Source of the DNA: a virus
Length of the DNA: 64,000 nt
Strand: one strand, 5' to 3'
IMG/VR virus record: IMGVR_UViG_3300035182_001904
Position 1 is the stretch's first letter. Each line of letters opens with the position of its first letter. The notes below the pieces were generated by a model that worked only from the letters and a program-made list of their open reading frames with translations, was not told the origin of the DNA and searched no databases. This document shows positions 33,143 to 60,881 of this stretch, in pieces. The position numbers and the translations under genes were made by a program.

Positions 33143-33691
33143 GTGCCCTTCGAGTCCCCGGCCGCCGCAGCCCACTACCTTGCCGCGATGATCGACGGTG
33201 AAGGAACGGTTGCGGTGCTCACCTCTCGATCGCGCAATCGCGTGGTCAAGGTTTGCAACACCGACTGGGACATCATCACGGCTACCGTCGAAAGCTGCGA
33301 GACTCTCGGCATTCGATGTTGCGTTGTCGAACGGCCACGTACAGGCCGTCCAAAACACTGGAAACAAGTTTGGGACGTCGCCATCCAAGATCGCGAAGCC
33401 CTCATGCGACTATTGACGCAAGTTCCGCTGCGGTCTCTTCGAAAACAGCAGCGACTCAAAACTTTGATTCAATCCTACCGAACGTCCAAACGGCCTCCGT
33501 TCGAGGATCTCCAACGAATGTACGTCGACGAAAAAATGTCGTACACGGACATCATGCGAACGACAGGCGCTCGATCAACGGCAACGGTAGCGTACTGGCC
33601 CCGGACGTCAGGGATCGTCGCGCGCACCCGTTCAGTTGCGGGCCACTTGACGTGGCAGACGAAGCGAGGAGTTCTCCATGCCGTTCCGTAG
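33143..33691 (+). CDS. Free-standing LAGLIDADG homing endonuclease with C-terminal HTH-like region
   Basis: YLAAMIDGEG motif at the N-terminus. Lower GC. Confidence 0.8.
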   Translation: MPFESPAAAAHYLAAMIDGEGTVAVLTSRSRNRVVKVCNTDWDIITATVESCETLGIRCCVVERPRTGRPKHWKQVWDVAIQDREALMRLLTQVPLRSLRKQQRLKTLIQSYRTSKRPPFEDLQRMYVDEKMSYTDIMRTTGARSTATVAYWPRTSGIVARTRSVAGHLTWQTKRGVLHAVP

Positions 33692-34139
33692 CGAGGCTCA
33701 ACGTCGCTACCTGTTCTCGCAACACCCGGATGTCGCCCGCGAGTTTGCGAACGCGACGCCCAAGGGCAAGAAGCTGCCCGAGCATGTCAAGAAGTCGCAC
33801 GTGCGCGGCATCGCAGACGCGCTCGAGCAGTTCGGTTTCAAGCAAGCAGCAGAGGAGCTGCGCTTGAAGATCCCAAGCCGCACGTTCCACGGCTACGATG
33901 CAGCTCACAAGACGGAAGCGAACCGCGGCTCGAAGAAGGCGGATGTGGACGGCACCGCAGACAACCTCGCCGACGTGCTCAAGCAGATCGACGTGAACGT
34001 GTCGCCTGATGTACAGCTTGCAGCCCGCGATCCACTCGACCGTACTACTGCGTGGGGATCTCCCTCGAACCTTGCGGGCGGCGACTCGGCGAGCCGGCTC
34101 AGTGACATGGGACAGAACACTGCTTTTGGAGGCGTCTGA
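33678..34139 (+). CDS. Hypothetical virion-module protein (MPFRSEAQRR N-terminal domain + shared motif)
   Basis: GAGGAG RBS. Contains HVRGIADALEQFGFKQAA. Confidence 0.75.
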   Translation: MPFRSEAQRRYLFSQHPDVAREFANATPKGKKLPEHVKKSHVRGIADALEQFGFKQAAEELRLKIPSRTFHGYDAAHKTEANRGSKKADVDGTADNLADVLKQIDVNVSPDVQLAARDPLDRTTAWGSPSNLAGGDSASRLSDMGQNTAFGGV

Positions 34140-34864
34140 TGTCACTCATGCCCCGTGAAGAGACGAGAACCTCTGAAAACTCGATCGGCCACATCATCGA
34201 TCGAGCCACAGGTAAAGCCCCCAAACCTACAGCGGGTTCCCTCATCGACTCTTTGTTGAGCGGGGGAAAAATGGCGATGCCGATGCAAGGGCAACTGACG
34301 CCAGACCAGTTAGCAGTGAACGAAGAACTGAAGGGGCTCGGGGGACGCCCCAACATGCACGGAGGGATGGACATGCCTGAGTCTTTCCACGGAGACCTCA
34401 TGTCGACATTCGAACGCCACAACATGCACCGTGCCCCCCTCGGGAATCCCAAGATGGCCGGGGTTTATCGTGTGGGTGTTGCCGACGCACTCGTGCGTTT
34501 CAAGATCGCAGCCCCTGCTCCCCTGCCTGCCCCTGCTGCGGGTCCTAGCTTCGCGTCCAAGGTCAAGGACTTCGGAGCCGGTCAGTGGGGCGCCGCGAAA
34601 GACTTCGCCGCGAATGTACGCGGTGGCATGGGTGGAAAGGCGAACCCGAACTTCATCACAGGCGCCGTACCCGAGCACAGCATGGACATGGCGCGTGCAT
34701 CACAACGCGGTGCTGCAGTCGGCAACCTCAAGACCCTTGCACCGACGCTGCTCGCGGGCGGAGGTCTCTACATGTTGCACCAGCACAACCAGGCCGAGAA
34801 AGAGGAAGAGGCCCGGCAGCACGCGATGATGGGCGGCGGCATGTCGATGGGTGGAGGATACTGA
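34139..34864 (+). CDS. Gly/Met-rich hypothetical protein with shared motif
   Basis: Contains YRVGVADALVRFKIAA. TGATG-coupled. Confidence 0.7.
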   Translation: MSLMPREETRTSENSIGHIIDRATGKAPKPTAGSLIDSLLSGGKMAMPMQGQLTPDQLAVNEELKGLGGRPNMHGGMDMPESFHGDLMSTFERHNMHRAPLGNPKMAGVYRVGVADALVRFKIAAPAPLPAPAAGPSFASKVKDFGAGQWGAAKDFAANVRGGMGGKANPNFITGAVPEHSMDMARASQRGAAVGNLKTLAPTLLAGGGLYMLHQHNQAEKEEEARQHAMMGGGMSMGGGY

Positions 34865-34871
34865 CGTGCCG

Positions 34872-35645
34872 ATGAACCCTCTACTAGCGCGCAGCCTCAT
34901 GGGCGCGGCGATCGGCACAGCCGGCGGAGCCTTGACCGCTGAAAAAGGTCATCGTGAAGAAGGTGCGCTGCAAGGCGCAGCGATCGGAGGCGCCGGCGGT
35001 GCCCTTTACCACCTTGGTAAGCAGGCACCCACCGCAGGACCGCGTCCTCCGGGGCCAAGTGCTCCTGGTCCAAGCGCAGGTCCGCGTCCAGCAGGTCCAA
35101 GTGCTCCTGGTCCAAGCGCAGGTCCGCGTCCAGCAGGTCCGTCCTGGGAAGACAGAATGCGACAACAGTGGCGGGCGCAAGATGAGGCCCGTGCGTCCGC
35201 ATCACGGCAGGCACGACAGAGCGCCAAAGAAGAGGCGTACAAACACACGCAACAAAGCCAGTCCGCACAAGACGGTTTCAAATACCGTCAACAAGCGGAG
35301 GACAAGCACTGGGGTGCGCAGAACGAAGATGTTTTCAACAACTGGCGTAAGGCGCGACAGGGCGCTGGTGCGGGTCCAAGTGCTGTTATAGGACAATCAG
35401 CTCCACGCGGAGCGCCAAGTGGCGGACTTCCGTCGTGGATGAGCGGAGCGCAAACACAGGCGGAGGCGAAGAGTCGCTTCAGAGAACAAGCAATGAATAT
35501 GCATCCAGACCGTGGCGGAAACACGGCCGACATGCAGTCATTGAATGCACAGTGGGCCGCTGCACGGAAACACCCTGACTTCTCGAGCATGAAAGAAGCG
35601 TGGTGGATGGGCAAAGCGGCTGCGTTACAACATTTCGGTCTCTAA
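34872..35645 (+). CDS. Glycine-zipper / Pro-rich / J-domain-like protein
   Basis: N-terminal GAAIG hairpin and GPSAPGPSAGPRPA repeats. AKSRFREQAMNMHPDRGG..MQSLNAQW is a compact J-domain with HPD. C-terminus is WWMGKAAALQHFGL. Confidence 0.7.
   Translation: MNPLLARSLMGAAIGTAGGALTAEKGHREEGALQGAAIGGAGGALYHLGKQAPTAGPRPPGPSAPGPSAGPRPAGPSAPGPSAGPRPAGPSWEDRMRQQWRAQDEARASASRQARQSAKEEAYKHTQQSQSAQDGFKYRQQAEDKHWGAQNEDVFNNWRKARQGAGAGPSAVIGQSAPRGAPSGGLPSWMSGAQTQAEAKSRFREQAMNMHPDRGGNTADMQSLNAQWAAARKHPDFSSMKEAWWMGKAAALQHFGL
35055..35140. repeat. Perfect 42-bp tandem duplication (in frame)
   Basis: ccaagtgctcctggtccaagcgcaggtccgcgtccagcaggt at 35055 and 35097. Confidence 0.95.
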
Positions 35646-35650
35646 CCAAC

Positions 35651-37432
35651 ATGGCGACAACGCTCGGACAGCACCTCGTCGACTCCATCCTCCCATCGAA
35701 GTGGCGAGGACAGGGGGCGCTCACCAAGGGGAACCTGAACAAGGTCCTCCTCGGTGTCGCAAAAGAGGACCCGAGCAAGTACCCCGACGTCGTGACCAAG
35801 CTCAAGCGTCTCGGTGACGAGGTCGCAACGCTCGACGGCATCTCCGTCGGCCTCGACGACATCGCGCCCCGTGTTGCTGAACGCGACGCTGCCTTGAAGC
35901 CGCACGTCGAAGCCTTTCGAAAGGCGACGACCAACGCGGACAAGGTCAAGACGCTCGTGGGCGGACAGAATGCGATGCTCATGCTGGCACGCAACCACCC
36001 AGGCACGATGGGCGAGATGGTTCGCGCCGGCGGTCGCGGCAATGCTGCACAACTCATGCGCACCGTGGGCGCACCCGTCTTCGCCGAAGACTCCAAGGGC
36101 AAGGTCATTCCGTGGCTCGTCGACAAGAGCTTCTCCGAAGGGCTCAAGCCTGCGGATGCGTGGATCATGGGCGGTCAGGCGCGTGTCAACGCGGTGGTCT
36201 CGAACATCTCGGTTGTCGAGCCCGGTGACCTTGCGAAGATCCTCGTCAACAACATGGGCGACCAGCTCGTGACGACGGTGGACTGCGGCACCAAGAACGG
36301 CATCGCGATGTTGCCGACCGACGCACACCTCATCGACCGCTACCAGGCGGGCACGAACAAGCTGATCACGCCGCAGTACGCGTCTCACCTTGCCAAAGAA
36401 GGCAAGGAGGTCATCGTCCGTTCTCCGATGACCTGCGAAGCTGCGCACGGCGTCTGTCAGCGCTGCCAAGGCCTGTCGTCTTCGGGTGGCATGCATTCGA
36501 TCGGAACGAACGTTGGCGTTCGCGCGGCTCAAGCGCTCGCCGAGCCGCTCACGCAGTTCGCCCTCAACGCGAAGCACGGCGGGCGCGTCGTCGGTGTTGA
36601 CGACGAGAAGCGGCTCGAGGGCATCAAAGGCGTGCGAGCCTTGCTCGAGATTCCGACATCGTTCGCACACAAGGCGGTACTTGCTGACCGCGACGGTTCC
36701 ATCACGAAGATCGACAAGGCTCCGCAGGGCGGTCACTACGTCTTCGTCGGCGACGGTAGCCACTACGTGCCTCCCGCACACAAGGTCGTCGTGGGCATCG
36801 GGCAATCGATGTATGCAGGGGACTTGCTCTCCGATGGCGTACCCAAGCCTGACGAGATCGTTCAACACAAAGGCCTCGGTGAAGGTCGACGCTACCTCGT
36901 CGACGCGCTCTCCGATGTCTACAAGCGCGCAGGCTCCGAGGTCGACAAGCGCCACCTCGAGACGCTCGCCAAGTCCGTGCTCAACCACGTCCAGATCATT
37001 GATCCCGGTCCCGACGACGCATTCATCAAGGGTGACGTCGTCGACTACAATCGGTTCCATGCGTCCCTGGCCGCATCCAAGAAACGCCTCCCGACGACAG
37101 ACGCGATCGGCGAGACGCTCGCGGACGGCATCCTCCACCACACGGCGGGTACTGTCGTGACGCAGCCAATCGCAGACCAGCTCGTACGCCACGGCGTGAC
37201 GTCGGTGATGACGTCCAGCCAGGGGCCGCGTGCACTGCCGTTCATGCGCCCGGCGTCGCGCACACCTCTTCTCAATCCGGATTGGATGGCACGCCTCGCA
37301 CACCGCTACCTCAAGGAGTCATTGCTAACAGGCATCCACCGCGGCGATGTCTCCAACCTACACGGGGCGTCCCCTGTTCCAGCGTACGCTGCAGGCACAG
37401 AGTTTGGCCTTGGTGAAGAGGGGCAATACTGA
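35651..37432 (+). CDS. rpoC: RNA polymerase beta' C-terminal half (RpoC2-like)
   Basis: KLKRLG..ATLDGISVGLDDI, bridge helix EPGDLAKILV, Zn site C..RSPMTC..GVCQRC, trigger loop AAQALAEPLTQFALNAKHGG, and KRHLETL. ATG at 35651. Confidence 0.92.
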   Translation: MATTLGQHLVDSILPSKWRGQGALTKGNLNKVLLGVAKEDPSKYPDVVTKLKRLGDEVATLDGISVGLDDIAPRVAERDAALKPHVEAFRKATTNADKVKTLVGGQNAMLMLARNHPGTMGEMVRAGGRGNAAQLMRTVGAPVFAEDSKGKVIPWLVDKSFSEGLKPADAWIMGGQARVNAVVSNISVVEPGDLAKILVNNMGDQLVTTVDCGTKNGIAMLPTDAHLIDRYQAGTNKLITPQYASHLAKEGKEVIVRSPMTCEAAHGVCQRCQGLSSSGGMHSIGTNVGVRAAQALAEPLTQFALNAKHGGRVVGVDDEKRLEGIKGVRALLEIPTSFAHKAVLADRDGSITKIDKAPQGGHYVFVGDGSHYVPPAHKVVVGIGQSMYAGDLLSDGVPKPDEIVQHKGLGEGRRYLVDALSDVYKRAGSEVDKRHLETLAKSVLNHVQIIDPGPDDAFIKGDVVDYNRFHASLAASKKRLPTTDAIGETLADGILHHTAGTVVTQPIADQLVRHGVTSVMTSSQGPRALPFMRPASRTPLLNPDWMARLAHRYLKESLLTGIHRGDVSNLHGASPVPAYAAGTEFGLGEEGQY

Positions 37433-37878
37433 TGATCGCTCGAGCACATGCAAAGGGTATCGAAGATGCCCTTGCGCGCTTCCAAGTCAAAGACGCGGGC
37501 ATCATGGAAGGCATCAAGCAGACCTTCATCGGACAGCCTGGGCGTGCTTTCGTGGAAGGACCGCGTACGTTCTCTCCGGGTGGAATGCTTTCCACCAAGA
37601 ACGTATGGTGGCCCAGCGTCAAGGGCCAGCCGTTGAACTGGATTGGACGTGCTGGCACGATCGCAGCACCGCTCATGGCACTCTCTGCCATGCGGTCAAA
37701 CCCGCAAGAGGGCCACCTATCAAACGCGCTCGGTGCGCTTGGTGGAATCGCTGGGAGCGCATATGGTTTCCCGGCGCTTGGCATGCTTGGCGGACCTCTT
37801 CTCGCACAAGCGGGCGCACGAGCTGGACGTGGCCTCGGACATCTACTCGGCAGTAAACCGAAGGACCTCTATCAATGA
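37432..37878 (+). CDS. Shared-motif protein with glycine-zipper C-terminus
   Basis: MIARAHAKGIEDALARFQVKDA... Confidence 0.75.
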   Translation: MIARAHAKGIEDALARFQVKDAGIMEGIKQTFIGQPGRAFVEGPRTFSPGGMLSTKNVWWPSVKGQPLNWIGRAGTIAAPLMALSAMRSNPQEGHLSNALGALGGIAGSAYGFPALGMLGGPLLAQAGARAGRGLGHLLGSKPKDLYQ

Positions 37879-38111
37879 TCAACGACGCCTATAATAAAGG
37901 CCGTACCGATGCACTCACCCGCTTCAAGCTCGCTCAAGGCATGGGCATGGGTGCTGGTGGTATGAATGTCGGTGGTGGCGTCGGCGGTGGCACGTCGGGC
38001 AGTCCTGGCGCAGCGGGAATGGCAGCACCACTGCCTCCCGCGATGGCCGCTCCAACATCCGCGGCGCCGCCCATGGCAGCGGGGGCTCAAAAGGCTCGCG
38101 CGCTCGGTTAG
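37875..38111 (+). CDS. Small shared-motif protein, Gly/Ala/Pro-rich
   Basis: MINDAYNKGRTDALTRFKLAQ... Confidence 0.7.
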   Translation: MINDAYNKGRTDALTRFKLAQGMGMGAGGMNVGGGVGGGTSGSPGAAGMAAPLPPAMAAPTSAAPPMAAGAQKARALG

Positions 38112-38183: not shown

Positions 38184-39503
38184 ATGTTCAAGCATGCGTA
38201 CGTCCGTGGCATCCAGACCGCGTTGGTCAACAGCGGCGCAGCCGCGTTCCCCGACGAGACCACCGCGGCGAAGGTCGCGGACTACATCGCTGACCGTGTC
38301 GACATCGACCCTCTGAAGGGTGTGTCGCGCGAGGCGACCCACAAGATCGGGACGGACCTGGTCGCAGCCTCCGACTGGATCAAGCAGCAGCCCGGCTTCA
38401 AGGCGGCGAGCTTCAACAAGCTCGCGACGTGGGAAGACGTCGCGCAGCTCGCGGATCGCAACGCGACCCAGCTGATGACGAAGGCCGCCGAGGGCTCGAC
38501 CATCGAGGGTGGCGACAAGGGGAACACCCAAGCCGAGGCGCCCGCGGGCGAGACCAAGATGGACGCCTCGCAGCGTCCTCCCGGCTATGCCGAGGACAGC
38601 CGCGGCAAGACCGAGATCGACACCCGGCCGGGCACGGTCGGCAAGGAAGAGGAGCAGCCGAACAAGCCCAAGGAGACCGACTCCAAGGACAACTCGGTGC
38701 AGGAGCACTCGCGCACCGCGTCGCTCGCTGACCTCTTCCGCAAGTCGGCCGAGGGCTCGACGATCATGGGTGGCGACAAGGGCAACACCGCCATGTCGTC
38801 GGCCGAGGCCAAGATGGACGCGGCACAACGTCCCGCAGGCTACGCCGTCCTGCCCACGCAGGGTGCACTCGGCGCGATGATGAACCTCGTCGGCGGCCCC
38901 GCGGTCGTCGGCAAGGAGACCGCGCAGCCGAACAAGCCCGGCGAGTCGCCGAGCGGTTCGAACTCGGTGACCCAGCAGTCCGCCAAGGCGGCTGCCGAGG
39001 ACCCGTACATCGCGCTCTTCAAGAAGGTCGCTGCCGAGGTGCACGAGTACCTCCCGGGCGGTCTCCACGAGAACGCCAAGATCGCCGCGGTCCGCGCCTG
39101 CATGGGCATGACGACCGAGGAGAAGGCGTACTACCTCCGCGGCCTGCAGAAGGAGGCGGCGGATGCGTCGACGGGTTCTTCCAGCCTGCCGCCGGGCTCG
39201 CGCGGTGATCGCTACCGTGAGCACAACCCGGACGCGACGCACTCGCGGCCCGGCGCCTACGATGGCCGCTCTGGCAACCAGGGCACCAAGCAGGCCGACG
39301 ACCTCCCGCCCTTCATGAAGAAGGACGAGAAGGACGAGAAGAAGGACGACGACAAGGAGAAGGACAAGGGCGGCATGCCCGACTTCATCCGCGAGAAGAT
39401 CGAGGGCAAGAAGCACGAGGAAGGCGAGTCGAAGAAGGAAGAGCACAAGGAGGCCTCGCTTCGCGACTTCTTCCGTCGCATCGACGCGGCACAGCGCGCG
39501 TGA
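38184..39503 (+). CDS. Head/core-type protein with shared motif and internal 87-aa duplication
   Basis: MFKHAYVRGIQTAL. Two KxAEGSTIxGGDKGNT..KMDA.QRP.GYA..VGKE..QPNKP repeats and many K-x-A sites. Confidence 0.8.
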   Translation: MFKHAYVRGIQTALVNSGAAAFPDETTAAKVADYIADRVDIDPLKGVSREATHKIGTDLVAASDWIKQQPGFKAASFNKLATWEDVAQLADRNATQLMTKAAEGSTIEGGDKGNTQAEAPAGETKMDASQRPPGYAEDSRGKTEIDTRPGTVGKEEEQPNKPKETDSKDNSVQEHSRTASLADLFRKSAEGSTIMGGDKGNTAMSSAEAKMDAAQRPAGYAVLPTQGALGAMMNLVGGPAVVGKETAQPNKPGESPSGSNSVTQQSAKAAAEDPYIALFKKVAAEVHEYLPGGLHENAKIAAVRACMGMTTEEKAYYLRGLQKEAADASTGSSSLPPGSRGDRYREHNPDATHSRPGAYDGRSGNQGTKQADDLPPFMKKDEKDEKKDDDKEKDKGGMPDFIREKIEGKKHEEGESKKEEHKEASLRDFFRRIDAAQRA

Positions 39504-39667
39504 GCCTTCCGCGCCACATCCGCGAAATGGGGCGTCTCGTCGTCGAAGAGAAGCTTGCTGAGATCCTGAACCCGACCCTCGGCTCGCTCAAGGCGCAGAA
39601 GACGAAGCAGCTGGGCGGTCTTCCTGACGCGAATCTCTCCAAAGTCGTCAGCTTCCCCAGTTCGTAG
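39500..39667 (+). CDS. Small protein (55 aa, not in ORF track)
   Basis: GTGA-coupled. MSLPRHIREMGRLVVEEKLAEIL...FPSS fills the gap exactly. Confidence 0.5.
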   Translation: MSLPRHIREMGRLVVEEKLAEILNPTLGSLKAQKTKQLGGLPDANLSKVVSFPSS

Positions 39668-39679
39668 ACGAGGTCCCAT

Positions 39680-42600
39680 ATGCCGGCAATGTCGCCCCGC
39701 ACTCAACAGCTCCAGGCCGGCATGAACGCGGGTCCCGACCAAGAGACAGCCCTGTTCGAACAGGGCATGTCGGAGATGGCGTACAACCTGCTGTCGACGC
39801 GTATGCCTGACCTGATGCAAGACGTCGTCACCTTCAAGGTGCTCGATGTCGACATCGACAAAGGGTCAGGTGTGGGGTCGTTCGTGGTCTTGCGCCACAA
39901 CCAACCGATCTACGTTCCGGTGGTGATGGTCGACAACGCCATCAAGCCGCTCGAGGTCTTCTATCACAAGGCCCTGAACGTCTTCCTGCCGCTCTCCAAG
40001 GGTTGGCTCGACGAGATCGACAAGACCGGACTCGCGTCCTTGGGCGCGGGTGTCAAGACGCCCGAGACGCTCTACACAGACGTCGACATCCGCAACGTCG
40101 TCGTGCCGCCGATCACCGGCCGATTCTCGTATGCCTCGTGGGTGCCCAAGGCGCTCATCGACGTCGCACGGGTGATGACGGTGGAGACGCTCGAGAAGGT
40201 CGCGAGCGAAGCAGACCTCATGCTCCCGTCGTTGCTCTCGGCCGCGCCGAACACGATGAAGGCTGCCTACGTCCGACTTCTCGAACGGAACCCGACGCTG
40301 TTCAAGCAGGCGGCGTCGACGTACGGCATGAAGACGCTCGCGGCCGCACTTCAGCCCCGCCTCGAGAAGGTCGCGGCCAGGCAGCAACATGGCGGTGCGC
40401 TGTGGATCGCCGACGCCGACAACACACCGACCGACTTCAAGCGCATCTTCGGTGACAAGGCCGGGGAGGCGTACACGGGTGTGCGCAAGAAGGGCTTCGC
40501 CGCCAAGGACGAGCGCCTGAACCGCAACATGGCGGTGCAAGAGCAGCCCTACGAGCACTGGGTCGAGCCCAAGCAGCCCGGCATCTACACGCTCTACGCA
40601 TCGGACGGGAAGGAGCGCACCGCGTTCGTGATGCCCTTCCCGATCGATCTGTTCGATGAGGGCACGCGTTACGGCCGACGTCCGGCCGTTCCCGCACACA
40701 ACCCACTCGTCGACAACTCGTACACCGATCCCGAGACGCACGGCAGCTCGAACAAGGTCTACCCGCACGGGCGGCCAGACGAGGGCAGCTACGCCACGCG
40801 CCGTGGGTATGACGCCAAGCCGTTCCTCGCGGTGTTCGACAACGGTGACTACATCGAGCCGAACAGGCTCGTGGGCCGTGATTCGATCGCGGACGGTGTC
40901 GGCGGTTCGTTGCATGCCCGCATGTTCACGGACGTCAGTGGTGAGCCCAAGGCGGGCAAGGGCTTCTTCGTCCGCCAGCGCGGCACCACGTTCCAAGCGA
41001 CGGGTCCCGTCACGATCAAGTCGATCTCGACGGGGTCGGATGGCGTCCGTCGCATCAAGGCGACGCCTGGAGACTTCGGTCCCGAGAAGACGCTCTCGAC
41101 CGACGCAGCGTATCCGTACAACACGATCTGGATGCCCAAGGGCGCCGATGTCGTCTACCTTCCGACGGACTTCATCTGGGTGCCGCTTAAGGTGCGCCTC
41201 AACGAGCGCGGCTGGTTCCAGTCAGCGCTCGACCTACAGGCATGTGTCTCGAACATGCTCTCCGCGGTCGGCGCGAAGAAGGTCTCGATCAAGGACGCAG
41301 GCGCCAAGCAGTTCTCCATCAACGGGATGGCACCGCTGAGCTTCGTGCCCGCGCTCAAGAAGCTCGCATTCGCGTGCAACATCTCGGTCGTCGATGCCGA
41401 GGCGTTGCTCGTCAAGACGGCAGCAGACCACAAGGCGACTGCGTGGATTGCGACGAGCCAACAGCTCGCGCGGGTGCAGATGCGCCTCGACAAGCTTGCG
41501 GATCAAACACCCGGTTGGTGGCGTCAGTACGCGCCGCACGCCGAACATGCAACCGTGATGCATGACGCGCACGCCGACATGCGCCTGCCGGACGGTCACG
41601 TCATTCAGAAGGGTGAGAGCATCGCGATCCTGCCCTACGACCATGATCGTGGTTGCGTTCCAATCGTGACATCCACCGGACATCACTTCTCGATCGGTCA
41701 CGAAAAGTCGGCAGCGTTGAAGTCGTACTTCAAAGGCGCGGCGGACGACGACAAGAAGAAGTCCGACTCCGACAAGCCGAAGAAGAAGGCGCCCCCGAGC
41801 GACGGACCTCCGGGCGGCGATCCCGGCATGGACCCGAGCATGGGCGGCGACCCGAACCTCGGCCAGGACGCGGCGATGGCCGCCATGGGCCAGGCTCCTC
41901 CGGCCCCGCCTCCGCCCGCTCCACTCGACCTCGCGGCGATGGAGATGGACCAGCACATCCAGCAGGAGATGCAGAAGCTGGTCGAGAAGCAGCAGACCAT
42001 CCAGATGCTGCTCCAGCGCTCGTCCGAGATCGCGGGTGGCGCGCCTCCTGCGCCGAGCGTGCAGACGCAGGCGATGGGCGCTCCTCCGTCTTCGATGAAT
42101 CTCGCGACGGGGCAACCCGGCATGCCGCCTGGCATGACGGCAGGCATGGGTGCACCGCCCCAAGACCCGTCGATGGGTGCCGCTGTTCCGCCGGGCATGC
42201 CGCCGGGCGGCGCGTTCCCGCCGGCTGCAGGTGACCCGTCGATGATGGGTGGCCAGGCGCAACAGGACCCGTCGATGAGCATGGGCGGACAGCCCGGCAT
42301 GGATCCGTCGATGAGCATGGGCGGACAGCTCGGCATGGATCCGTCGATGGGCATGGGCGGACAGCCCGGCATGGGACAAGACCCATCGATGATGAGTGGC
42401 ATGGGCGGACAGCCCGGCATGGATCCGTCGATGGGTCAGCAGCAACAGCCGCCCAACGCGACGATGCCGCCAGACGGCCCGAACGCGCAGACGCTTCCGC
42501 AGGAGGTCAATCCGCACTTCCTCGATCAAGCCGCGCAGTTGCATTCGGCAGACATGTTCGACGCAGCTGCTGTGGCAACGCTCGCGCAGTCGCCGGCACT

Positions 42601-42835
42601 TCATAGCGTGGTGGGCCAGTACCTGCCGAACCTCGAGAAGGCGGTCGACAACCTCGCGCGCGTCATGTTGACGCTGTGGATGCAGGAGTCCGCCCTCAAG
42701 CCGCAGATCGGTGAGCAGACCTTCTCGGGACTCGAGGACAACCTCCAGTCGACGTTCAAGGGGCTTGGTGACCTGGTCCTGCGCTTGAGCCGCGGGGTGC
42801 AGGCCGTCAAGGAGCCGGACGACCATGCGTCGTGA
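39680..42835 (+). CDS. Large virion-module protein (1051 aa) with Pro/Gly/Met-rich region
   Basis: GAGG RBS, multiple K-x-A sites and MGGQPGMDPS repeats. Confidence 0.8.
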   Translation: MPAMSPRTQQLQAGMNAGPDQETALFEQGMSEMAYNLLSTRMPDLMQDVVTFKVLDVDIDKGSGVGSFVVLRHNQPIYVPVVMVDNAIKPLEVFYHKALNVFLPLSKGWLDEIDKTGLASLGAGVKTPETLYTDVDIRNVVVPPITGRFSYASWVPKALIDVARVMTVETLEKVASEADLMLPSLLSAAPNTMKAAYVRLLERNPTLFKQAASTYGMKTLAAALQPRLEKVAARQQHGGALWIADADNTPTDFKRIFGDKAGEAYTGVRKKGFAAKDERLNRNMAVQEQPYEHWVEPKQPGIYTLYASDGKERTAFVMPFPIDLFDEGTRYGRRPAVPAHNPLVDNSYTDPETHGSSNKVYPHGRPDEGSYATRRGYDAKPFLAVFDNGDYIEPNRLVGRDSIADGVGGSLHARMFTDVSGEPKAGKGFFVRQRGTTFQATGPVTIKSISTGSDGVRRIKATPGDFGPEKTLSTDAAYPYNTIWMPKGADVVYLPTDFIWVPLKVRLNERGWFQSALDLQACVSNMLSAVGAKKVSIKDAGAKQFSINGMAPLSFVPALKKLAFACNISVVDAEALLVKTAADHKATAWIATSQQLARVQMRLDKLADQTPGWWRQYAPHAEHATVMHDAHADMRLPDGHVIQKGESIAILPYDHDRGCVPIVTSTGHHFSIGHEKSAALKSYFKGAADDDKKKSDSDKPKKKAPPSDGPPGGDPGMDPSMGGDPNLGQDAAMAAMGQAPPAPPPPAPLDLAAMEMDQHIQQEMQKLVEKQQTIQMLLQRSSEIAGGAPPAPSVQTQAMGAPPSSMNLATGQPGMPPGMTAGMGAPPQDPSMGAAVPPGMPPGGAFPPAAGDPSMMGGQAQQDPSMSMGGQPGMDPSMSMGGQLGMDPSMGMGGQPGMGQDPSMMSGMGGQPGMDPSMGQQQQPPNATMPPDGPNAQTLPQEVNPHFLDQAAQLHSADMFDAAAVATLAQSPALHSVVGQYLPNLEKAVDNLARVMLTLWMQESALKPQIGEQTFSGLEDNLQSTFKGLGDLVLRLSRGVQAVKEPDDHAS
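42266..42434. repeat. In-frame ~36-bp tandem repeats (DPSMxMGGQPGM) x4
   Basis: gayccgtcgatgrgcatgggcggacagcycggcatg x3 plus one expanded copy. Confidence 0.9.
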
Positions 42836-43496
42836 ACGCAGCCCCGACGACCGCTACCAAGCGGTGATGCGGTCGCCGCACGCGCCTGCACACGCGTACG
42901 AAGCTGCCCTTTGGAACTTCAAGACCCAAGGCGTTGCGGACGACGTGATCGAACGCGTGGTCGACGTGTACGAAGACGCGTTCGAACGCGAGCTGCTTCA
43001 AGCGTGGATCATCGCCGGTGCGTCTGACGAGGACATCAGCACACGGGGCGGCGTGCCTCCTGAACTTCTCTCGCCCTATCGCCATCTCTGCTGCAACGTT
43101 GCCGCGTTCCGCGATCGACTTGAGATGATGCGCTGGGTCAACATGTACAAGGGCTCGCGAACGGGCAAAGTCATGCTCGAGCGCGCGCTGCACTTCGACG
43201 GCATCGAGGCGATCGCACACCTCAGCGGTCGCAAGACTGTGCTTTCACCAGACCACGTCAACGAACAAGCCATGCGCGAGTCATACTTCCGCAGCATCAG
43301 CACGCTGCGTGCTTCGAGCATCGCAGGCCCGGATGCGCTCGCGGCTCACCAGCTGATGAAGACGGCGATGACGGCTGCGCAAGCGGCGGCAAACCGCGGC
43401 GAGCCGAACATGGCGGAGACGCTGCTCAAGCTCAAGCACCGCGAGGTGACGTGGCATGTCGAGGACATCGTGCCTCACGGGGAGATCCTTCACTGA
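42825..43496 (+). CDS. Hypothetical protein (possible HTH)
   Basis: 223 aa. IIAGASDEDISTRGGVPPELL resembles an HTH. Confidence 0.7.
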   Translation: MRRERSPDDRYQAVMRSPHAPAHAYEAALWNFKTQGVADDVIERVVDVYEDAFERELLQAWIIAGASDEDISTRGGVPPELLSPYRHLCCNVAAFRDRLEMMRWVNMYKGSRTGKVMLERALHFDGIEAIAHLSGRKTVLSPDHVNEQAMRESYFRSISTLRASSIAGPDALAAHQLMKTAMTAAQAAANRGEPNMAETLLKLKHREVTWHVEDIVPHGEILH

Positions 43497-46139: not shown

Positions 46140-46141
46140 TC

Positions 46142-49545: not shown

Positions 49546-49547
49546 AT

Positions 49548-49576
49548 TTGTTTTTCCGCGCACGGCCCACTATCAT
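49548..49576 (+). promoter_or_regulatory. Promoter candidate TTGTTT-17-TATCAT for the scaffold/capsid operon
   Basis: TTGTTT at 49548-49553, TATCAT at 49571-49576, GGAGA SD, ATG at 49603. Confidence 0.5.
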
Positions 49577-49602
49577 TTTCACCGTAACGGAGACGGCAAT
49601 CC

Positions 49603-50175: not shown

Positions 50176-50178
50176 GCC

Positions 50179-50451
50179 ATGGCTGACGTGGTTCACATCG
50201 ACGCGCTCGCTCGCCTCAAGCAGGCAGCGGAAGCGAAGACGGCCGCGGATCCCGCGCTCGTCAAGGCGTTGCTTGGTGGTGGTGCGTTGCTTGGCGGCGG
50301 TGCCCTTGGCGCCGGCCTCATGCATGCCCATGACGAAGCCGCGCGCGAACGCGCCAAGAACACAGGCTTCGGCGCAGGGATTGCGACTGGCATGGCCGGG
50401 CCGCAGATCATCGACGCGCTGCACGCCGTGATGCATCGAGGCGCGCCGTGA
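50179..50451 (+). CDS. Small glycine-zipper protein
   Basis: KQAA..KTAA|DPALVKALLGGGALLGGGALG. Confidence 0.72.
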   Translation: MADVVHIDALARLKQAAEAKTAADPALVKALLGGGALLGGGALGAGLMHAHDEAARERAKNTGFGAGIATGMAGPQIIDALHAVMHRGAP

Positions 50452-50663
50452 ACCGCACGCATCAACACCTATCGCTCGTCGTGGACGAGGTGCTCGCGGA
50501 AGCGAACGCCGCGTCCCATCGCAAGACGGCCGAGACGCATGCGATCAAAGTCGCAGCGGCACAACCCAAGACCGAGACGGCGCGCGGTCTGCGCGCCCTC
50601 GCCGACGAAGTTCGTACCGCATCGAGCGACGTGTCGTACGATGATCTCATGGGGGCCCTGTGA
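50448..50663 (+). CDS. Small helical protein
   Basis: GTGA-coupled, contains KTAE and KVAA. Confidence 0.65.
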   Translation: MNRTHQHLSLVVDEVLAEANAASHRKTAETHAIKVAAAQPKTETARGLRALADEVRTASSDVSYDDLMGAL

Positions 50664-50815
50664 AGGAATCCGAGATGCTTCGTACGATCGCAAGTGACCT
50701 GCGTGCGCAGGGCTTGAAGCAAGCCGAAGACCGCAAGATCAAGGCGGCCAGCGTGCTCGTCGCAGCGACGGGTTTCGGCATGCTGCGTTCCAAGCTCGGA
50801 GGCGCTCGTGGTTGA
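50660..50815 (+). CDS. Small protein (51 aa, not in ORF track)
   Basis: GTGA-coupled. MKESEMLRTIASDLRAQGLKQAEDRKIKAASVLVAATGFGMLRSKLGGARG. Confidence 0.55.
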   Translation: MKESEMLRTIASDLRAQGLKQAEDRKIKAASVLVAATGFGMLRSKLGGARG

Positions 50816-51164
50816 TCACACCAAGCTCGCGGCGGTCTTCGATGCCATGGCCGACTATGTCGACCAGGTCGAGACTGAGAAGACCTCATCGGTCGCAGCC
50901 GCACGTCAGGTGCGTCTCGACAAGATCGCCACGGCACACGCCGTGGCACACGGAGAAGAGCTGCCGGACATCGCCCGGCAGAAGCTCGCGAAGGCCGACG
51001 ACGCGACTCTCGATGTGGTCGAGGACTTGCTCTCCAAGCAAGCCGGCGTCGTCACTCCCCTCGGCGGCGGCGTTTCGGCCGACGACGATCTCCAACCCAA
51101 GACCCCCAAGCAAGCAGCTGATGCGGCGGACGAACGATTCGTCAGCTGGATCGTTTCCTCGTAG
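50808..51164 (+). CDS. Scaffold-like helical protein
   Basis: 118 aa, ending DAADERFVSWIVSS, immediately before the decoration and capsid genes. Confidence 0.7.
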   Translation: MVDHTKLAAVFDAMADYVDQVETEKTSSVAAARQVRLDKIATAHAVAHGEELPDIARQKLAKADDATLDVVEDLLSKQAGVVTPLGGGVSADDDLQPKTPKQAADAADERFVSWIVSS

Positions 51165-51679: not shown

Positions 51680-52618
51680 ATGTCGGCAGCGTACAAGACA
51701 CAGACCCAGCAGGTTTCTAATCAGTTCATCAACTCGAACTTCGTCCGCAAGGTCGAAGACGGGCGGACGAAGGAGGCAGCGGCCGAGGGTACGGCGTTCA
51801 TTCGCCAGAAGCTCCGTCAGGAGTCCTTCGCACGCGAGATCATCGAGCCCGTCATGCTGGCGGACGACGAGATCGACCGTGACGAGAACACCGACCAGCC
51901 CAAGAAGATCGTCGAGAAGGAGCCCGACTCCGTCGCCACGTTCGTGCCGTTCAACGGCACGGCGCAGCGTACGTGGTTCCGTGGCAAGCGCTTCTCGGTC
52001 TACTTCGGCAAGACCGAGTCGCAGCGGTACACCAAGAACAAGTTCGAGCTGATGACGTATCAGAACGACATCCGCAAGATCCTGTCGGACAACTCCGTCA
52101 AGGACATGGCGGACCAGGAAGACCAGAAGTTCCTGGACACCATCAACGCGATCATCGCGCTGAACCTCGCGACGCAACGCACCCTCGCGGGCGCGTTCAA
52201 CTCGAGCGCGTTCAAGCTCGGCTTCCAGGGCCTCGTCAACCGGCGCCAGCCGATCGGCAAGCTCCTGATGTCGAAGTCGACGTACTACGAGGCCCTCGAC
52301 CTGCCGGCGACCTCCGTCGGCAACGACGTGGCGTCGCGGCACTACGACATGGGCATCGAGGCCGAGGAGAAGCTGTGGGGCATCCCCGTGGTTTCGACCA
52401 TCAAGCGCGAGATCGTCGACGACGTCGCCGGTTCGACTCGCCGCTCGGTCTACGTGTTCGCGCCGCAGAACTACCTCGGCGTGTTCTTCCTCCTGCAGGA
52501 TGCGACCCTGTACATCAAGCAGGAAGCCGACATCATCGAGTTCTGGAGCTACGCAGCGCCGGGCATCGGCATCGGCAACACGCTGGCGACCCAGCGCATC
52601 GACCTGCCGTTCGCCTGA
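51680..52618 (+). CDS. Major capsid protein (probable HK97 fold)
   Basis: 312 aa, strong AAGGAG RBS, very biased codon usage, followed by a hairpin and neck genes. Segments IRQKLRQESFAREII..KIVEKEPDS and EFWSY..GIGIGN. Confidence 0.75.
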   Translation: MSAAYKTQTQQVSNQFINSNFVRKVEDGRTKEAAAEGTAFIRQKLRQESFAREIIEPVMLADDEIDRDENTDQPKKIVEKEPDSVATFVPFNGTAQRTWFRGKRFSVYFGKTESQRYTKNKFELMTYQNDIRKILSDNSVKDMADQEDQKFLDTINAIIALNLATQRTLAGAFNSSAFKLGFQGLVNRRQPIGKLLMSKSTYYEALDLPATSVGNDVASRHYDMGIEAEEKLWGIPVVSTIKREIVDDVAGSTRRSVYVFAPQNYLGVFFLLQDATLYIKQEADIIEFWSYAAPGIGIGNTLATQRIDLPFA

Positions 52619-53167: not shown

Positions 53168-53674
53168 ATGGCTTCCCCTTCGATCACCGTTGTCACGTCG
53201 CGCACCGCGCAGTCCATCTCGACGGCGATCCAACAACAGGTCGCCACCGGGAAGAAGTTCACGGGGGTACTGCCGCAAGCAGGTGCTGTGCGCGCGGACA
53301 GCCCCGTGCAGCCCGGCAACAGCTGCTACAAGTACGCGTCGCTCGCAGCAGACGGCGGGGGGCTGTTCTTCTGGAACAACGTCGAGTCCCTGGTCTGCAG
53401 CCAGATCCATGTGGACCTGGGTGCTGCGGGGGACATCACCGTGTCGCTCGTGAACCTCGATCCGACGAAAATCAACGATGACCAGCCCGCTATCCTGGCG
53501 GGCGAGTCGATCATCATCGAGCAATCGACGGGCGTGCGCTTCATCGCGCTCGACGAAGCGCGCTTCAAGACGATCCTCCTGCCGTACCAAGCAATCCAGA
53601 TCGTGACGACGGCGACTGCGGGCGCACAAATCGCGCAGGTCGTGGCCAGCCTCGAGAAGACGTACGTGCGCTGA
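53168..53674 (+). CDS. Virion structural protein (unassigned)
   Basis: 168 aa, beta-rich. GCTACAAT (53149-53156) and AGAGG lie upstream. Confidence 0.72.
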   Translation: MASPSITVVTSRTAQSISTAIQQQVATGKKFTGVLPQAGAVRADSPVQPGNSCYKYASLAADGGGLFFWNNVESLVCSQIHVDLGAAGDITVSLVNLDPTKINDDQPAILAGESIIIEQSTGVRFIALDEARFKTILLPYQAIQIVTTATAGAQIAQVVASLEKTYVR

Positions 53675-54153
53675 TGCCGATCGTCGGCACACCCACAACG
53701 CCGACAGTGGTCTCCAAAGACCAAGTCCGCATGTTTATGCGCGACTACGCGAACAACAACATCTTGTTGGATGACGTACAGTTCACGGATGCAGAACTGA
53801 ACCTGGCGCTCGAGATGACGGTGAGTTCGTTCAATACGGTGACGCCGCAGACGAACTTCACGCCGTCGTCGTTCCCTACACATCTACGGTATCTGCTGCT
53901 TGTGGGCACGACCCGCTTTCTGCTCATGAGCGAGTCGTTCATGCAGGTCAGAAACCAGGCGACCGTGCAAGATGGCGACATCTCGCCGATCGGCATTTCT
54001 GACAAGGCTGCGCTCTACGCGCAACTCGCACAACAACTCAAGGGCGAGTGGGATGAACTGACGCGCGGCGTGAAGACACAGAACAACATGGAGAGCGCGT
54101 ATGCGACCCTGGGTTCTGGGTATCGCAACGTGAGCCGGTTCAACAAGTCATGA
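53674..54153 (+). CDS. Probable head-tail adaptor
   Basis: VSKDQVRMFMRD..FTDAELNLAL pattern and post-capsid position. Confidence 0.55.
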   Translation: MPIVGTPTTPTVVSKDQVRMFMRDYANNNILLDDVQFTDAELNLALEMTVSSFNTVTPQTNFTPSSFPTHLRYLLLVGTTRFLLMSESFMQVRNQATVQDGDISPIGISDKAALYAQLAQQLKGEWDELTRGVKTQNNMESAYATLGSGYRNVSRFNKS

Positions 54154-54443
54154 CGCTCGTTGCTGCATATACACAAGGCAAGAACGCAGCGCTTGCGCAT
54201 TTCAAGCTCGCTAACTCGATGGGCGCGAATGCAGGCGTGCAGCCGCGGGGCGATGAGTTCAGCCATGGCACCGAGCGCATCCCGTACGCACACCGCGAAA
54301 CACCCGGAGACGGGGCTCACACGGAAGCCGCAAGTAACGCCCGCGCGAACATGCCCGCCTGGCTGTGGGACCACTTCACGACCTACGACAACATTGCGCC
54401 GGGACGTGCGGATGGGTCGTTCGGACAAGAGGTCATCGGGTGA
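54150..54443 (+). CDS. Small shared-motif protein
   Basis: MTLVAAYTQGKNAALAHFKLAN... Confidence 0.72.
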   Translation: MTLVAAYTQGKNAALAHFKLANSMGANAGVQPRGDEFSHGTERIPYAHRETPGDGAHTEAASNARANMPAWLWDHFTTYDNIAPGRADGSFGQEVIG

Positions 54444-54464: not shown

Positions 54465-54644
54465 ATGTCGAACAACCACCTGAAGACCGCGCACGAGTAC
54501 GGCATCCAGAAGGCTCTCGAAGCTGTCGGCTACAAGAGCGCGGAGGAAGTCCGTCGCGATGCCGAGGCGCTCGGCCTGATCGAGGCACCCAAGACGGCCG
54601 CCGCGAACCCGCTCGCAGACCTGTTCCGCGCGATCCAGAAGTAG
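54465..54644 (+). CDS. Small shared-motif protein (59 aa, not in ORF track)
   Basis: MSNNHLKTAHEYGIQKALEAVGYKSAEEVRRDAEALGLIEAPKTAAANPLADLFRAIQK. Confidence 0.75.
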   Translation: MSNNHLKTAHEYGIQKALEAVGYKSAEEVRRDAEALGLIEAPKTAAANPLADLFRAIQK

Positions 54645-54653: not shown

Positions 54654-55031
54654 ATGTCGCTGCTGCGCCAAAAGTCGGCTGAGGGCGGGCGCGCAGCGCT
54701 CGCGGCCTTCGGCTTGCCTGCGCCGCAGCAGCCAGGTCTCAAGTCTGTTGGGATCAAGACGCCACACGCGTCGGATCTTCCACACCTGCCACGGCCCGGA
54801 TCGACCAACGCACCATCGGTTGGAGACTCGATGGGCGTTGACGCTGCGAAGATCGCGTTCAACGTCGGCATGGGTGCGTCGACATCGAGCGACGGTGCAG
54901 GTGCTCAGGCGGGTGAGCCGACGGACACCGGACGTCGTCAACGCAGCGTCATCGATCGCGCACTCCAGCGCAACGACGACGACTACGCAACCAGCAGCAT
55001 GCCGTTGCCAGGAGACGTCGTTTCGCCATGA
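54654..55031 (+). CDS. Shared-motif protein, low complexity
   Basis: KSAEGGRAALAAFGL, KIAF. Confidence 0.68.
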   Translation: MSLLRQKSAEGGRAALAAFGLPAPQQPGLKSVGIKTPHASDLPHLPRPGSTNAPSVGDSMGVDAAKIAFNVGMGASTSSDGAGAQAGEPTDTGRRQRSVIDRALQRNDDDYATSSMPLPGDVVSP

Positions 55032-55891
55032 CCCTCGAGCTGGCATACGCGAACGGGCAACACGCGGCGCTCGAGCGCTACAAGCTGGGCTGGCCTGCGC
55101 CAACGAACCCGACCGTGGCAGGGAGCGCCGTGCTCCGTGCCAAGGACGGTCCGTCGTCGTTGTCACCGCAGGCGCAGCAAGCGATGGCACCTCCGGCGAC
55201 ACCTGCATCCGTCGCGCAGATCTTCAGCGCGCACGAGCAGGGCGAGACCCGTGGCGAACCTCGTCGCAAGCTCTCTGCGGACATCTGCACGTCGTGTCGC
55301 AAGGCCAAGCACTACGGCACGTGCAGCCAGCCCCGGCCGATTCCAATGAAGGCTGCGGACTTCAATCCGGGCATGCTCGGTGGTGACCCCAAGCAGGGCG
55401 ACAATCCGTCGACCAGCCCTCACTACCACTCGGCGACGAGCAGCATCAGCGCGCTTGGGCGCTCAAGCGACGGACGTCCTGCGGACGAGCAGGCAGGTTC
55501 GGGTTTCGCTGACCTGTTTCGACACCAAGGCATCCGCAACAGCGCGGATGAGCCGGGACGGATGACGGGCGGCCTGAACAAGGTCGCGATCGACGCAGAC
55601 CGTGAACGTACTCGCCGTCACGCGATTCTGTACCGCATGTACGGCGTCAAGCTCAGCGACTTCTTCACCAACATGCCAGGCGCGGCGACGCACTCGATGC
55701 ACGAGCAGCGTGGCACGCCGATCAATCCCTACGAAGAACGTCTGACCCGCAAGTCCCCGCCCGTCGGCTGGGGTGACGAAGGTGACCAGCGCATCAACCG
55801 CGCATTCGGTCAGATCGACAACGCGGCCGACACATCCAGCATCGGGGGCGGCGCCGGTTCACCTGATACCGGGCCGGCGGTCCTTGGCTGA
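55028..55891 (+). CDS. Shared-motif protein with CxxC..H..C segment
   Basis: MTLELAYANGQHAALERYKLG, CTSCRKAKHYGTC and several K-x-A/S sites. Confidence 0.7.
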   Translation: MTLELAYANGQHAALERYKLGWPAPTNPTVAGSAVLRAKDGPSSLSPQAQQAMAPPATPASVAQIFSAHEQGETRGEPRRKLSADICTSCRKAKHYGTCSQPRPIPMKAADFNPGMLGGDPKQGDNPSTSPHYHSATSSISALGRSSDGRPADEQAGSGFADLFRHQGIRNSADEPGRMTGGLNKVAIDADRERTRRHAILYRMYGVKLSDFFTNMPGAATHSMHEQRGTPINPYEERLTRKSPPVGWGDEGDQRINRAFGQIDNAADTSSIGGGAGSPDTGPAVLG

Positions 55892-56726: not shown

Positions 56727-56729
56727 TTC

Positions 56730-57437: not shown

Positions 57438-57467
57438 TCGCCAACATCGCGATCCGACCGTCAACAC

Positions 57468-57475
57468 CCTATAAT
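57468..57475 (+). promoter_or_regulatory. CCTATAAT -10-like element upstream of sheath gene
   Basis: TATAAT at 57470-57475 in the intergenic gap, GGAG SD, ATG at 57509. Confidence 0.6.
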
Positions 57476-57508
57476 TTCCGCAACCCTATGGACTCGGAGC
57501 ACTGACCC

Positions 57509-59914: not shown

Positions 59915-59923
59915 GGCGCCTTC

Positions 59924-60565
59924 ATGTCCGACAACTTCTTCGACAAGTTCATCGCGGACCTCGTCAAGGGCGCGGAAGCCTCGCAAGGCTTCATGCCCGG
60001 GTCGAAGGTCAACGTCGAGATCTCGCGCGAGCATCGTGGTCGCGAGGAGAAGCTCGCGTCATTCGGTGGCGCCCTCGGCGGCGGTCTTCTCGGTGGTGGT
60101 GCTGGTGCACTTGGTGGCGGCCTCGCCGGCGCTGGCACGGGTGCACTGCTCGGCAAGCTGCTCCATCTCGACCCCGCGGTCGCCCAAGACATGGGTGCGC
60201 TGCTTGGCGTGGGAGGTGCTGCCGCAGGAGGTCTCGGCGGTGCGGCCGCAGGCACGGCGGCTGGCATGGAACCGCACCGTCCTTCGTTGATGGAGCGCAT
60301 GAAGGGCGGGGCCCTCGAGTCCCGCTACACCGACGGCATCAAGGCCGCCGCCGCAGCGTTCGGCATCAAGGAGGCCTTCCTCCCTGCGCTGCTTGGCGCG
60401 GCTGCCCCGATGCTCGGTCGCTCTCTGCTTGGCAAGGCTGCGCCTGCCATCGCGGGGCGTGTGGGCAGCGGGCTAGCAGGCGCTGCATTCGACACCGCAG
60501 CCCAAGCCGGTGGCCAGGCGATTGGCAACAAGCTGATGCCGCCGAAGCCCCCGATGCCAAACTGA
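59924..60565 (+). CDS. Glycine-zipper protein with internal shared motif
   Basis: EEKLAS|FGGALGGGLLGGG, RYTDGIKAAAAAFGIKEA|FLPALLG. Confidence 0.75.
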   Translation: MSDNFFDKFIADLVKGAEASQGFMPGSKVNVEISREHRGREEKLASFGGALGGGLLGGGAGALGGGLAGAGTGALLGKLLHLDPAVAQDMGALLGVGGAAAGGLGGAAAGTAAGMEPHRPSLMERMKGGALESRYTDGIKAAAAAFGIKEAFLPALLGAAAPMLGRSLLGKAAPAIAGRVGSGLAGAAFDTAAQAGGQAIGNKLMPPKPPMPN

Positions 60566-60569
60566 CCAA

Positions 60570-60881
60570 ATGATCAAGCGCGCCTACCACAGCGGAGTCG
60601 AAGCGGCGTCGAAGCGATTCGGCGTTCGCGAGGGCTCGATCATGGGCATGATCCAGGACACGCTTCCGTTGCTTGCGATGGGCGCTGCCAAAAGCACCGC
60701 GAAGGCGCTTGTGCCGGGCGCCTTCGCACACATCGATCGCTTGCAGGAAGCGCCCGGCAAGTTCCTGCGTCGCAACCTACTGCCCGCGCACATGCAAGTG
60801 TCACCTGCTGACGCGCTTGCACGACACCTCGAGACCGCGTCACTACCCCCAACAGGTCCTCACATGATGGGGATTCGATGA
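60570..60881 (+). CDS. Shared-motif protein
   Basis: MIKRAYHSGVEAASKRFGVRE... Confidence 0.7.
   Translation: MIKRAYHSGVEAASKRFGVREGSIMGMIQDTLPLLAMGAAKSTAKALVPGAFAHIDRLQEAPGKFLRRNLLPAHMQVSPADALARHLETASLPPTGPHMMGIR

Follow-up and report, generated by a model that had tools for sequence, protein, structure and literature searches.

Here, we report a protein motif of ~20 residues, referred to below as the tag, which recurs in the late proteins of a virus recorded in IMG/VR as IMGVR_UViG_3300035182_001904. The window, i.e., the whole stretch of DNA analysed, comprises 64,000 nucleotides (bases 42464-106463 of one 137.5-kb virus contig with 62% G+C), and all positions refer to it unless the genome is named. 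Tentatively, we read the tag as a virion- or capsid-targeting signal which would act in the manner of the capsid-targeting sequence (CTS) of phage T4 and, in roughly every second case, is joined to a putative protease site. It appears as a portable amphipathic helix on fast-changing small accessory proteins that would be expressed together with the virion genes. By the shared face of this helix, the tagged proteins would all dock to the same partner while the particle assembles, and docking would load them into the virion, as the CTS does for the T4 internal proteins. Inside the prohead, a gp21-fold prohead protease may then clip the tag at an adjoining K-x-A in about half of the cases.

Tag copies and their distribution

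A hidden Markov model (HMM) was built from the twelve copies listed in a preliminary description of this DNA and used to search the complete 137.5-kb genome, translated in six frames. All twelve were present at the genes named there, the one listed as 34872 being an ATG start within an open reading frame (ORF) that begins at 34851. They align without gaps around an invariant Gly and score 23.6-30.8 bits, compared to 6.8 bits for the best background match. Two unlisted copies past the end of the window, at window-equivalent positions 69000 (157 amino acids (aa), 15.2 bits) and 69473 (104 aa, 10.8 bits), bring the total to 14 in this genome. All are located in plus-strand coding frames of the late block, and neither the minus strand nor the out-of-frame translations of the whole genome gave a comparable HMM match. 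In this search, which had been proposed earlier as a check on the motif proteins, the copies are confined to the late virion gene block. Since the seeds match their own model, the test was repeated in a leave-one-out manner. Ten of the twelve copies outrank all background (7.6-18.9 bits vs. 5.8-7.6 bits), while 38184 (4.0 bits) and 54465 (4.3 bits) fall below it and are considered weak members; the orthologues of both retain an N-terminal A-[YH]-x-x-G-x-x-x-A-L. In 81 related loci, HMM matches of at least 10 bits number 44 on the coding strand and one on the other.

Outside the tag, the 14 proteins of this genome show no significant similarity to each other: in an all-against-all BLASTP comparison with the tags masked, the best match has an E value of 0.027. 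Over 14 codons, the tag-coding DNA shares a mean nucleotide identity of 48% among copies, and identical tag residues are encoded by the same codon in 46% only. As the preliminary description states, the DNA is not repeated, at least not in the form of a recent DNA repeat; dissimilar masked bodies and differing codons together imply that the tag is maintained at the protein level. The preliminary description also held that the rest of each protein is unrelated. This is true between paralogous genes but has to be limited to them, since orthologous bodies and tags are conserved to about the same degree. For the same reason, we rejected the notion of a tag that is conserved far better than the body among orthologues. 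The tagged proteins are real proteins and not junk behind a motif. Scans of them against Pfam and PHROG gave no family reaching threshold over the tag, which agrees with the earlier statement that no named family was known for it; the sole near match to the tag region, residues 42-70 of 33678 against DUF6471, has an E value of 0.019 and remains below the cut-off.

A profile search of 1.84 billion representative proteins yielded 23 matches at E <= 0.001, 20 of which are proteins of 62-426 residues, mostly shorter than 130. Among the 20 non-repeat representatives, 18 start with M-[LI]-[KR]-x-A-Y or a close variant, and the other two match further in. The top matches were rejected as relatives: P0001 and P0002 are tandem repeats, and P0004 carries a repeated psq-like helix-turn-helix (HTH).

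In 10 of the 14 proteins, as in nearly all orthologues, the tag begins 3-8 residues past the initiator Met. Within the window, this arrangement is found at 37438-37503 in gene 37432-37878 (148 aa; HMM 29.0 bits, leave-one-out 18.1 bits), whose start codon shares 1 nt with the stop codon of the RNA polymerase beta'-C gene; at 37881-37946 in gene 37875-38111 (78 aa; 30.8 and 17.5 bits), where a Gly/Met/Ala/Pro-rich tail follows; at 54159-54224 in gene 54150-54443 (97 aa; 29.7 and 18.9 bits), which has a 4-nt overlap with the stop of the head-tail adaptor-like gene 53674-54153; at 54666-54731 in gene 54654-55031 (125 aa; 23.7 and 7.6 bits); at 55037-55102 in gene 55028-55891 (287 aa; 27.3 and 7.7 bits), whose product has a Cys-rich segment; and at 60576-60641 in gene 60570-60881 (103 aa; 27.8 and 10.1 bits). 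The two weak copies are N-terminal as well. One lies at 38190-38255 in gene 38184-39503 (439 aa; 23.9 bits when seeded), where MFKHAYVRG / MSLFKRAYVRG is retained in the orthologues of the related genomes G005 and G002; the other at 54483-54548 in gene 54465-54644 (59 aa; 27.8 bits when seeded), whose family keeps A9, G13, A17 and L18 invariant across 14 orthologues.

Internal tags occur at 33789-33854 in gene 33678-34139 (153 aa; 29.1 and 17.6 bits), downstream of a DUF3008-like N-terminus matched by phrog_1375 at residues 3-32; at 34457-34522 in gene 34139-34864 (241 aa; 24.7 and 15.1 bits), with P-K-M-A before and F-K-I-A after; and at 60317-60382 in gene 59924-60565 (213 aa; 25.4 and 11.1 bits), which encodes a Gly-zipper-rich product and is located between the sheath and tube genes. 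A single C-terminal tag at 35592-35642 (23.6 and 8.4 bits) forms the last 17 residues of the protein encoded by 34872-35645, behind a J-domain-like HPD segment. The tag is thus found at N-termini, internally and at a C-terminus, next to differing domains, and both this and its description as a portable protein-level module are borne out.

The internal copies look like fusions. In G005, the orthologue of 33678 has no DUF3008-like extension and carries the tag at its start. The metagenomic representatives P0003 and P0006 each hold two tag-plus-body modules in one reading frame, in P0006 a 34139-type module fused in frame behind a 33678-like one; tagged modules can therefore be chained in the manner of a small polyprotein. 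A relative whose capsid protein is 90% identical (L036:17336-18697) has a GNAT-like domain of ~155 aa upstream of the tag and a 54150-like body. This domain shows an R-G-x-G-x-G motif, and its match to PF13508 (E 0.008) is below the cut-off. The 34872-35645 protein further contains an N-terminal glycine zipper, PGPS repeats and a Gln-rich stretch, with Gly-zipper Pfam matches below the cut-off and phrog_13942/9210 over residues 197-241. Possibly, this is a protein of the virion module with the task of recruiting host DnaK.

The tagged genes form five clusters in the late module: between the two RNA polymerase genes, just past the second of these, between the adaptor and neck genes, between sheath and tube, and after the spike region. 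They overlap their neighbours (RNA polymerase beta'-C, adaptor, sheath and tube genes) or sit within a few bases of them. In Salmonella phage Arash and the relatives L079 and L050, the adaptor gene is directly followed by the neck gene with nothing between, and in Arash no gene separates sheath and tube. To judge from this gene order, the clusters are insertions. Copy number declines with distance from this phage: 14 copies here are followed by 11 in G005 (capsid protein identity 96%), 10 in G006 and 7 in G007 (90% each), 5 in G008 (80%; 59% complete), 1-3 in G001-G004 (~72%) and none in the whole genomes of Arash and Vibrio phage D69 (~40%). Distant relatives still carry recognisable N-terminal tags, e.g., MYYEYGQRAALQKLGM and MSLFKRAYVRGVNDELV. 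The tag expanded within this lineage.

Such a stepwise climb in copy number would also be expected if the tag were the conserved remnant of one old duplicated gene family without any common addressing role, and some tagged proteins do share residues past the tag, e.g., FKLAxxMG in 37875 and 54150. We give this explanation very little credence. The tag occurs at three kinds of position, beside DUF3008-like, J-domain-like, GNAT-like (L036) and Cys-rich parts, the masked bodies are dissimilar, and the same helix face is kept by selection in all copies.

The predicted tag helix

Pooling of 78 distinct instances gave the consensus L-[KER]-x-A-[YH]-x-x-G-x-x-A-A-L-x-R-F-[GK]-[LV]-[AK]. With residues numbered from the invariant Gly (G0), this Gly and the second Ala are found in every instance, 65-90% retain L(-7), A(-4) and L(+5), 82% have Y/H(-3) and 73% have F/Y(+8). 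On a helical wheel, L-7, A-4, Y-3, G0, A+3/+4 and F+8 fall on one face, with the small Gly and Ala in its centre. AlphaFold2, applied to the 59-aa protein 54465 (14 orthologues), places a helix at residues 9-20 with a predicted local distance difference test (pLDDT) score of ~83, behind which come a loop and two further helices. A helix predicted over the tag, with the conserved residues on one face, is in good agreement with the amphipathic helix proposed earlier.

The same face could, however, serve as a helix-helix association module with a small-residue G-x-x-x-A surface. In that case, the tagged proteins would bind each other in one heteromeric assembly, e.g., an ejection-protein complex, inner body or membrane conduit, and not a separate receptor. 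The invariant Gly and Ala at i and i+4, flanked by Tyr, Leu and Phe, would suit such packing; several tagged proteins have hydrophobic Gly-zipper segments, and proteins with two tags exist (P0003, P0006). A fixed stoichiometry is difficult to combine with the quick turnover among close relatives (14, 11, 10 and 7 copies), and the K-x-A adjacent to the tag, described below, remains unexplained. Altogether, we consider this unlikely.

We judge it very unlikely that the amphipathic helix has a membrane or a host factor as its target, so that the tagged proteins act on the envelope or on a host hub in entry, exclusion or lysis and do not owe any packaging to the tag. Many bodies are indeed Gly-zipper or Pro/Gly/Met-rich, which together with the amphipathic character of the helix would fit, and the gp5-like spike and a papain-like peptidase are encoded in the neighbourhood of some clusters. 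But helices of this kind rarely keep an invariant Gly and Ala and near-invariant Tyr, Leu and Phe over 14 paralogues and many phages. On reading the tagged sequences, no hydrophobic core similar to a signal peptide was found, and all tagged genes are late and co-oriented with the structural genes.

A DNA-binding HTH was rejected. The core G-I-x-A-A-A-x-x-F-G-V of some tags resembles helix 2 plus turn of psq/CENP-B-type HTHs, as repeated in P0004; however, Leu occupies in most tags a position at which an HTH requires a small residue. Behind at least five tags there is Pro/Gly-rich sequence (34139, 37875, 54150, 55028) or a stop codon (34872) in place of a recognition helix, and the Pfam HTH families showed no match to ten tag proteins even at E <= 10.

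K-x-A motifs, prohead protease and scaffold-like protein

In 30 of 60 distinct tag instances, a K-x-A starts at G+8 to G+13, right behind the aromatic residue, where shuffled downstream sequence leads to an expectation of 3.4 and a maximum of 8. Several further instances show K-x-G and R-x-[AG] variants. The adjoining K-x-A of the preliminary description is present in about half of the instances and missing from the others. Beyond the tag, the motif is strongly enriched in the head-core proteins (38184-51164), with 82 observed vs. 34 expected occurrences (z 9.4). The tagged proteins have 28 vs. 14 (z 4.2), and the other late proteins, i.e., portal candidate, RNA polymerase, capsid, sheath, tube and tail, have 34 vs. 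39.7 (z -1.0). The enrichment is 2.4-3.6-fold and confined to scaffold and head-core proteins, where K-x-A is usually followed by Ala or Ser and often preceded by Leu two residues before the Lys; for the head-core proteins, K-x-A-[ASG] reaches z = 10.7. The patterns counted as controls (KA, K..A, A.K, R.A, E.A and others) are flat. The enrichment is found clade-wide, including gp220, gp222, gp223 and gp225 of Arash (L001:25213-30170). On the basis of these counts, K-x-A is probably the cleavage motif of a prohead protease with Ala at P1, as in herpesvirus assemblins, and not Glu as in T4.

A candidate for the enzyme is encoded at 46708-49545 on the plus strand, directly upstream of the scaffold-like gene. 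The gene is split by an intein of ~365 aa (Hint plus LAGLIDADG, identified by Pfam hits), which is located between residues 175 and 176, right after an invariant S-M-G. Most relatives do not have this intein; one at the same site is found in L007, L008, L042 and L077. An intein-free orthologue (L005:3986-4975) was modelled with a pLDDT of 73.7, and its best PDB match, at Foldseek rank 1, is 5jbl, T4 gp21 (Z 10.2, root-mean-square deviation 3.0 A, 138 of 164 residues). The next-best match reaches 6.2, and herpesvirus assemblins 4.5-5.8. The protease is recognised by fold comparison only: no sequence match was found for the protease region in Pfam or for the Arash gp222 homologue among PDB sequences. 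A gp21-fold protease together with the head-core enrichment of K-x-A indicates a T4-style head-maturation machinery in this phage. The order of tag and protease site gains indirect support from the K-x-A beside the tag, the head-core enrichment and the adjacent gp21-fold gene. Should the tag be a virion address, the K-x-A rule would provide a cleavage specificity that can be tested on a divergent branch of the gp21/assemblin protease fold.

It could also be that the tag itself is the recognition element of the prohead protease, or a handle for processing and turnover: the protease would dock on the helix, cut at flanking K-x-A and free the bodies or peptides. Besides the K-x-A behind the tag (30 of 60), a K-x-A directly ahead of the aromatic residue in 23 of 78 instances is consistent with this, as is the tag-like segment of the scaffold-like protein discussed next, which is flanked by K-L-A and K-V-A. 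At the upstream position, however, Lys is the commonest residue without reaching a majority (25 of 78), and the many tagless K-x-A in scaffold and core proteins indicate that no tag is needed to mark a site. We regard this explanation as rather improbable.

The scaffold-like protein (49603-50175, plus strand) was assigned by position and composition. It contains 13 K-x-A vs. 3.5 expected (z = 6.0), and all of its 41 homologues are enriched in the motif (ratio 3.6), while 42 capsid proteins are not. Its most conserved columns are K/A pairs and G159. A conserved C-terminal segment, K-L-A-E-S-A-Y-A-K-G-W-N-D-T-V-E-Q-I-H-K-V-A, is tag-like and matches the tag in spacing (Y, G, small, hydrophobic, hydrophobic, K-x-A). 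Of the two weaker copies named in the preliminary description, the one in 49603 is marginal, since hhalign puts the tag profile exactly on this segment (AYAKGWNDTV) with P = 0.035, and the 39500 ORF gave no match. One way to understand the likeness is that the tag mimics the C-terminal element of the scaffold, K-L-A-E-S-A-Y-x-x-G-[WY]-x-D-T-V-x-x-I-H-K-V-A, so that the accessory proteins would occupy the scaffold's site on capsid or core, and a gp21-fold protease with Ala at P1 would cut both sides. We consider this distinctly unlikely; if true, a very large clade of uncultured phages, which also packages a multisubunit RNA polymerase of its own, would possess a natural and programmable system for cargo loading. 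One three-protein complex prediction with capsid protein, scaffold-like protein and 54465 gave a score of 0.00, a value that we take neither as support for binding nor as evidence against it.

Coming back to the virion-targeting tag, the earlier proposal of a cargo-loading system is supported in part, with respect to the portable helix, the restriction to the late block, the adjacent K-x-A and the gp21-fold gene. Several observations weigh against it. With the tag region masked and 38184 set aside, whose body is rich in the motif (12 vs. 5.7 expected), the tagged proteins have 10 K-x-A vs. 9.9 expected; the view that tagged bodies share the head-core excess was therefore rejected. Thus, only the tag-adjacent K-x-A links the tagged proteins to the protease, a thin link that would fit a mode of action in which the tag is clipped and the body spared. 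About half of the tag instances have no K-x-A behind them, and a general removal of the tag by a downstream cut is impossible because one tag is the C-terminal end of its protein. Within orthologue families, the bodies show about the same conservation as the tag. The tag is absent from Arash, the cultured relative whose virions have been studied by mass spectrometry; the close relatives are all uncultured, and we infer the location of the tagged proteins in the virion. Finally, a role in tail or envelope is equally compatible with gene position because two of the clusters lie among tail and baseplate genes.

Related systems and the late gene block

Among the diverse internal proteins of T4, conservation is limited to the CTS, which can also carry foreign proteins into the head (PMC3012670). 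The tag resembles the CTS of IPI, IPII, IPIII and Alt, which the gp21 prohead protease removes, in being a short, usually N-terminal peptide that is the sole shared part of diverse, fast-changing small proteins. Common to both systems are also a gene for a gp21-fold protease next to those for scaffold and core, and a short recurrent protease-type motif right behind the tag. They differ in several respects: the CTS has ~10 residues, whereas the tag is a helix of ~20 residues that can also be internal or C-terminal; the T4 motif is (L/I)-x-E, and here it is K-x-A, followed by Ala or Ser; and the tag genes are spread over neck, tail and RNA polymerase regions. By inspection, the tag consensus has no apparent likeness to the CTS in sequence.

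In phage SPN3US, N-terminal propeptides of 20 and 24 residues are removed from head proteins at A-x-E (PMC10052503). Such giant-phage head proteins (gp45 and gp225 of SPN3US; phiKZ-like phages), cut by gp245/gp175, parallel the tag in having a propeptide of 20-24 residues ahead of a three-residue motif. SPN3US is also a phage that packages an RNA polymerase, as may be assumed here from the virion RNA polymerase of Arash. One sequence common to many proteins is not reported for the SPN3US propeptides, and the motif is a different one, with Glu in A-x-E as the presumed P1 in place of Ala. A further parallel exists outside the phages. The cargo-loading peptides of encapsulins and the encapsulation peptides of bacterial microcompartments are short peptides or amphipathic helices which are portable, sit at either end of unrelated cargo and dock it inside a protein shell, which in encapsulins shares the HK97 fold with phage capsids. 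In contrast to what we propose for the tag, these peptides are not removed by a protease, and they have no sequence relation to it.

Should the tag be a virion address, sequence alone would mark the proteins that this clade delivers into cells together with its DNA. Quick turnover and the J-domain-like and GNAT-like fusions would make the tagged set a natural place for host-takeover or counter-defence functions. The tag would also represent a second, sequence-unrelated case of the T4 CTS principle, with a longer helix that works at either protein end, and might be useful for packaging foreign proteins. If it has no address function, the tag nevertheless represents a protein-protein interaction module that has not been described before.

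The late virion module is a plus-strand block from ~25.5 kb to ~72 kb. It begins with a portal candidate, named by synteny with Arash gp204, followed by a two-chain multisubunit RNA polymerase and the head-core gene set, and continues with protease, scaffold-like protein, capsid protein, adaptor and neck genes, sheath, tube and a T4 gp5-like spike. Pfam RNA_pol_Rpb1_5 matches 35600-37432, the second chain (beta'-C) of the RNA polymerase, and the sheath gene was assigned via phrog_279. In Arash virions, mass spectrometry found the RNA polymerase beta subunit to be the most abundant protein (PMC10585845). The capsid protein (gene 51680-52618) shares 41% identity with its Arash counterpart and 38% with the capsid proteins of three Vibrio phages. 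Identities of 70-99% are reached by the capsid proteins of many IMG/VR contigs (130-198 kb), and over 1,000 clusters of related capsid proteins exist in metagenomes. When cultured close relatives with proteomic data were looked for, only environmental proteins came up; the clade is uncultured apart from the distant Arash and Vibrio relatives.

Some further genes of the late module deserve mention. The gp5-like spike at 63455-64000 (PF22178, PF06715) reaches past the window end. It is followed in the late module by a papain-family C1 peptidase at genome positions 110236-111069, and two of the tagged genes lie beyond both, at genome positions 111463-112250. The ORF 33143-33691, situated behind the RNA polymerase beta/beta'-N gene and ahead of the first tagged gene, carries a LAGLIDADG-like LAAMIDGEG motif and is probably a free-standing homing endonuclease. 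The gene 39680-42835 encodes a homologue (1051 aa) of the Arash structural protein gp218, which has a very long low-complexity insert rich in Gly, Met, Pro, Ser and Gln and contains K-x-A in excess (12 vs. 6.1 expected).

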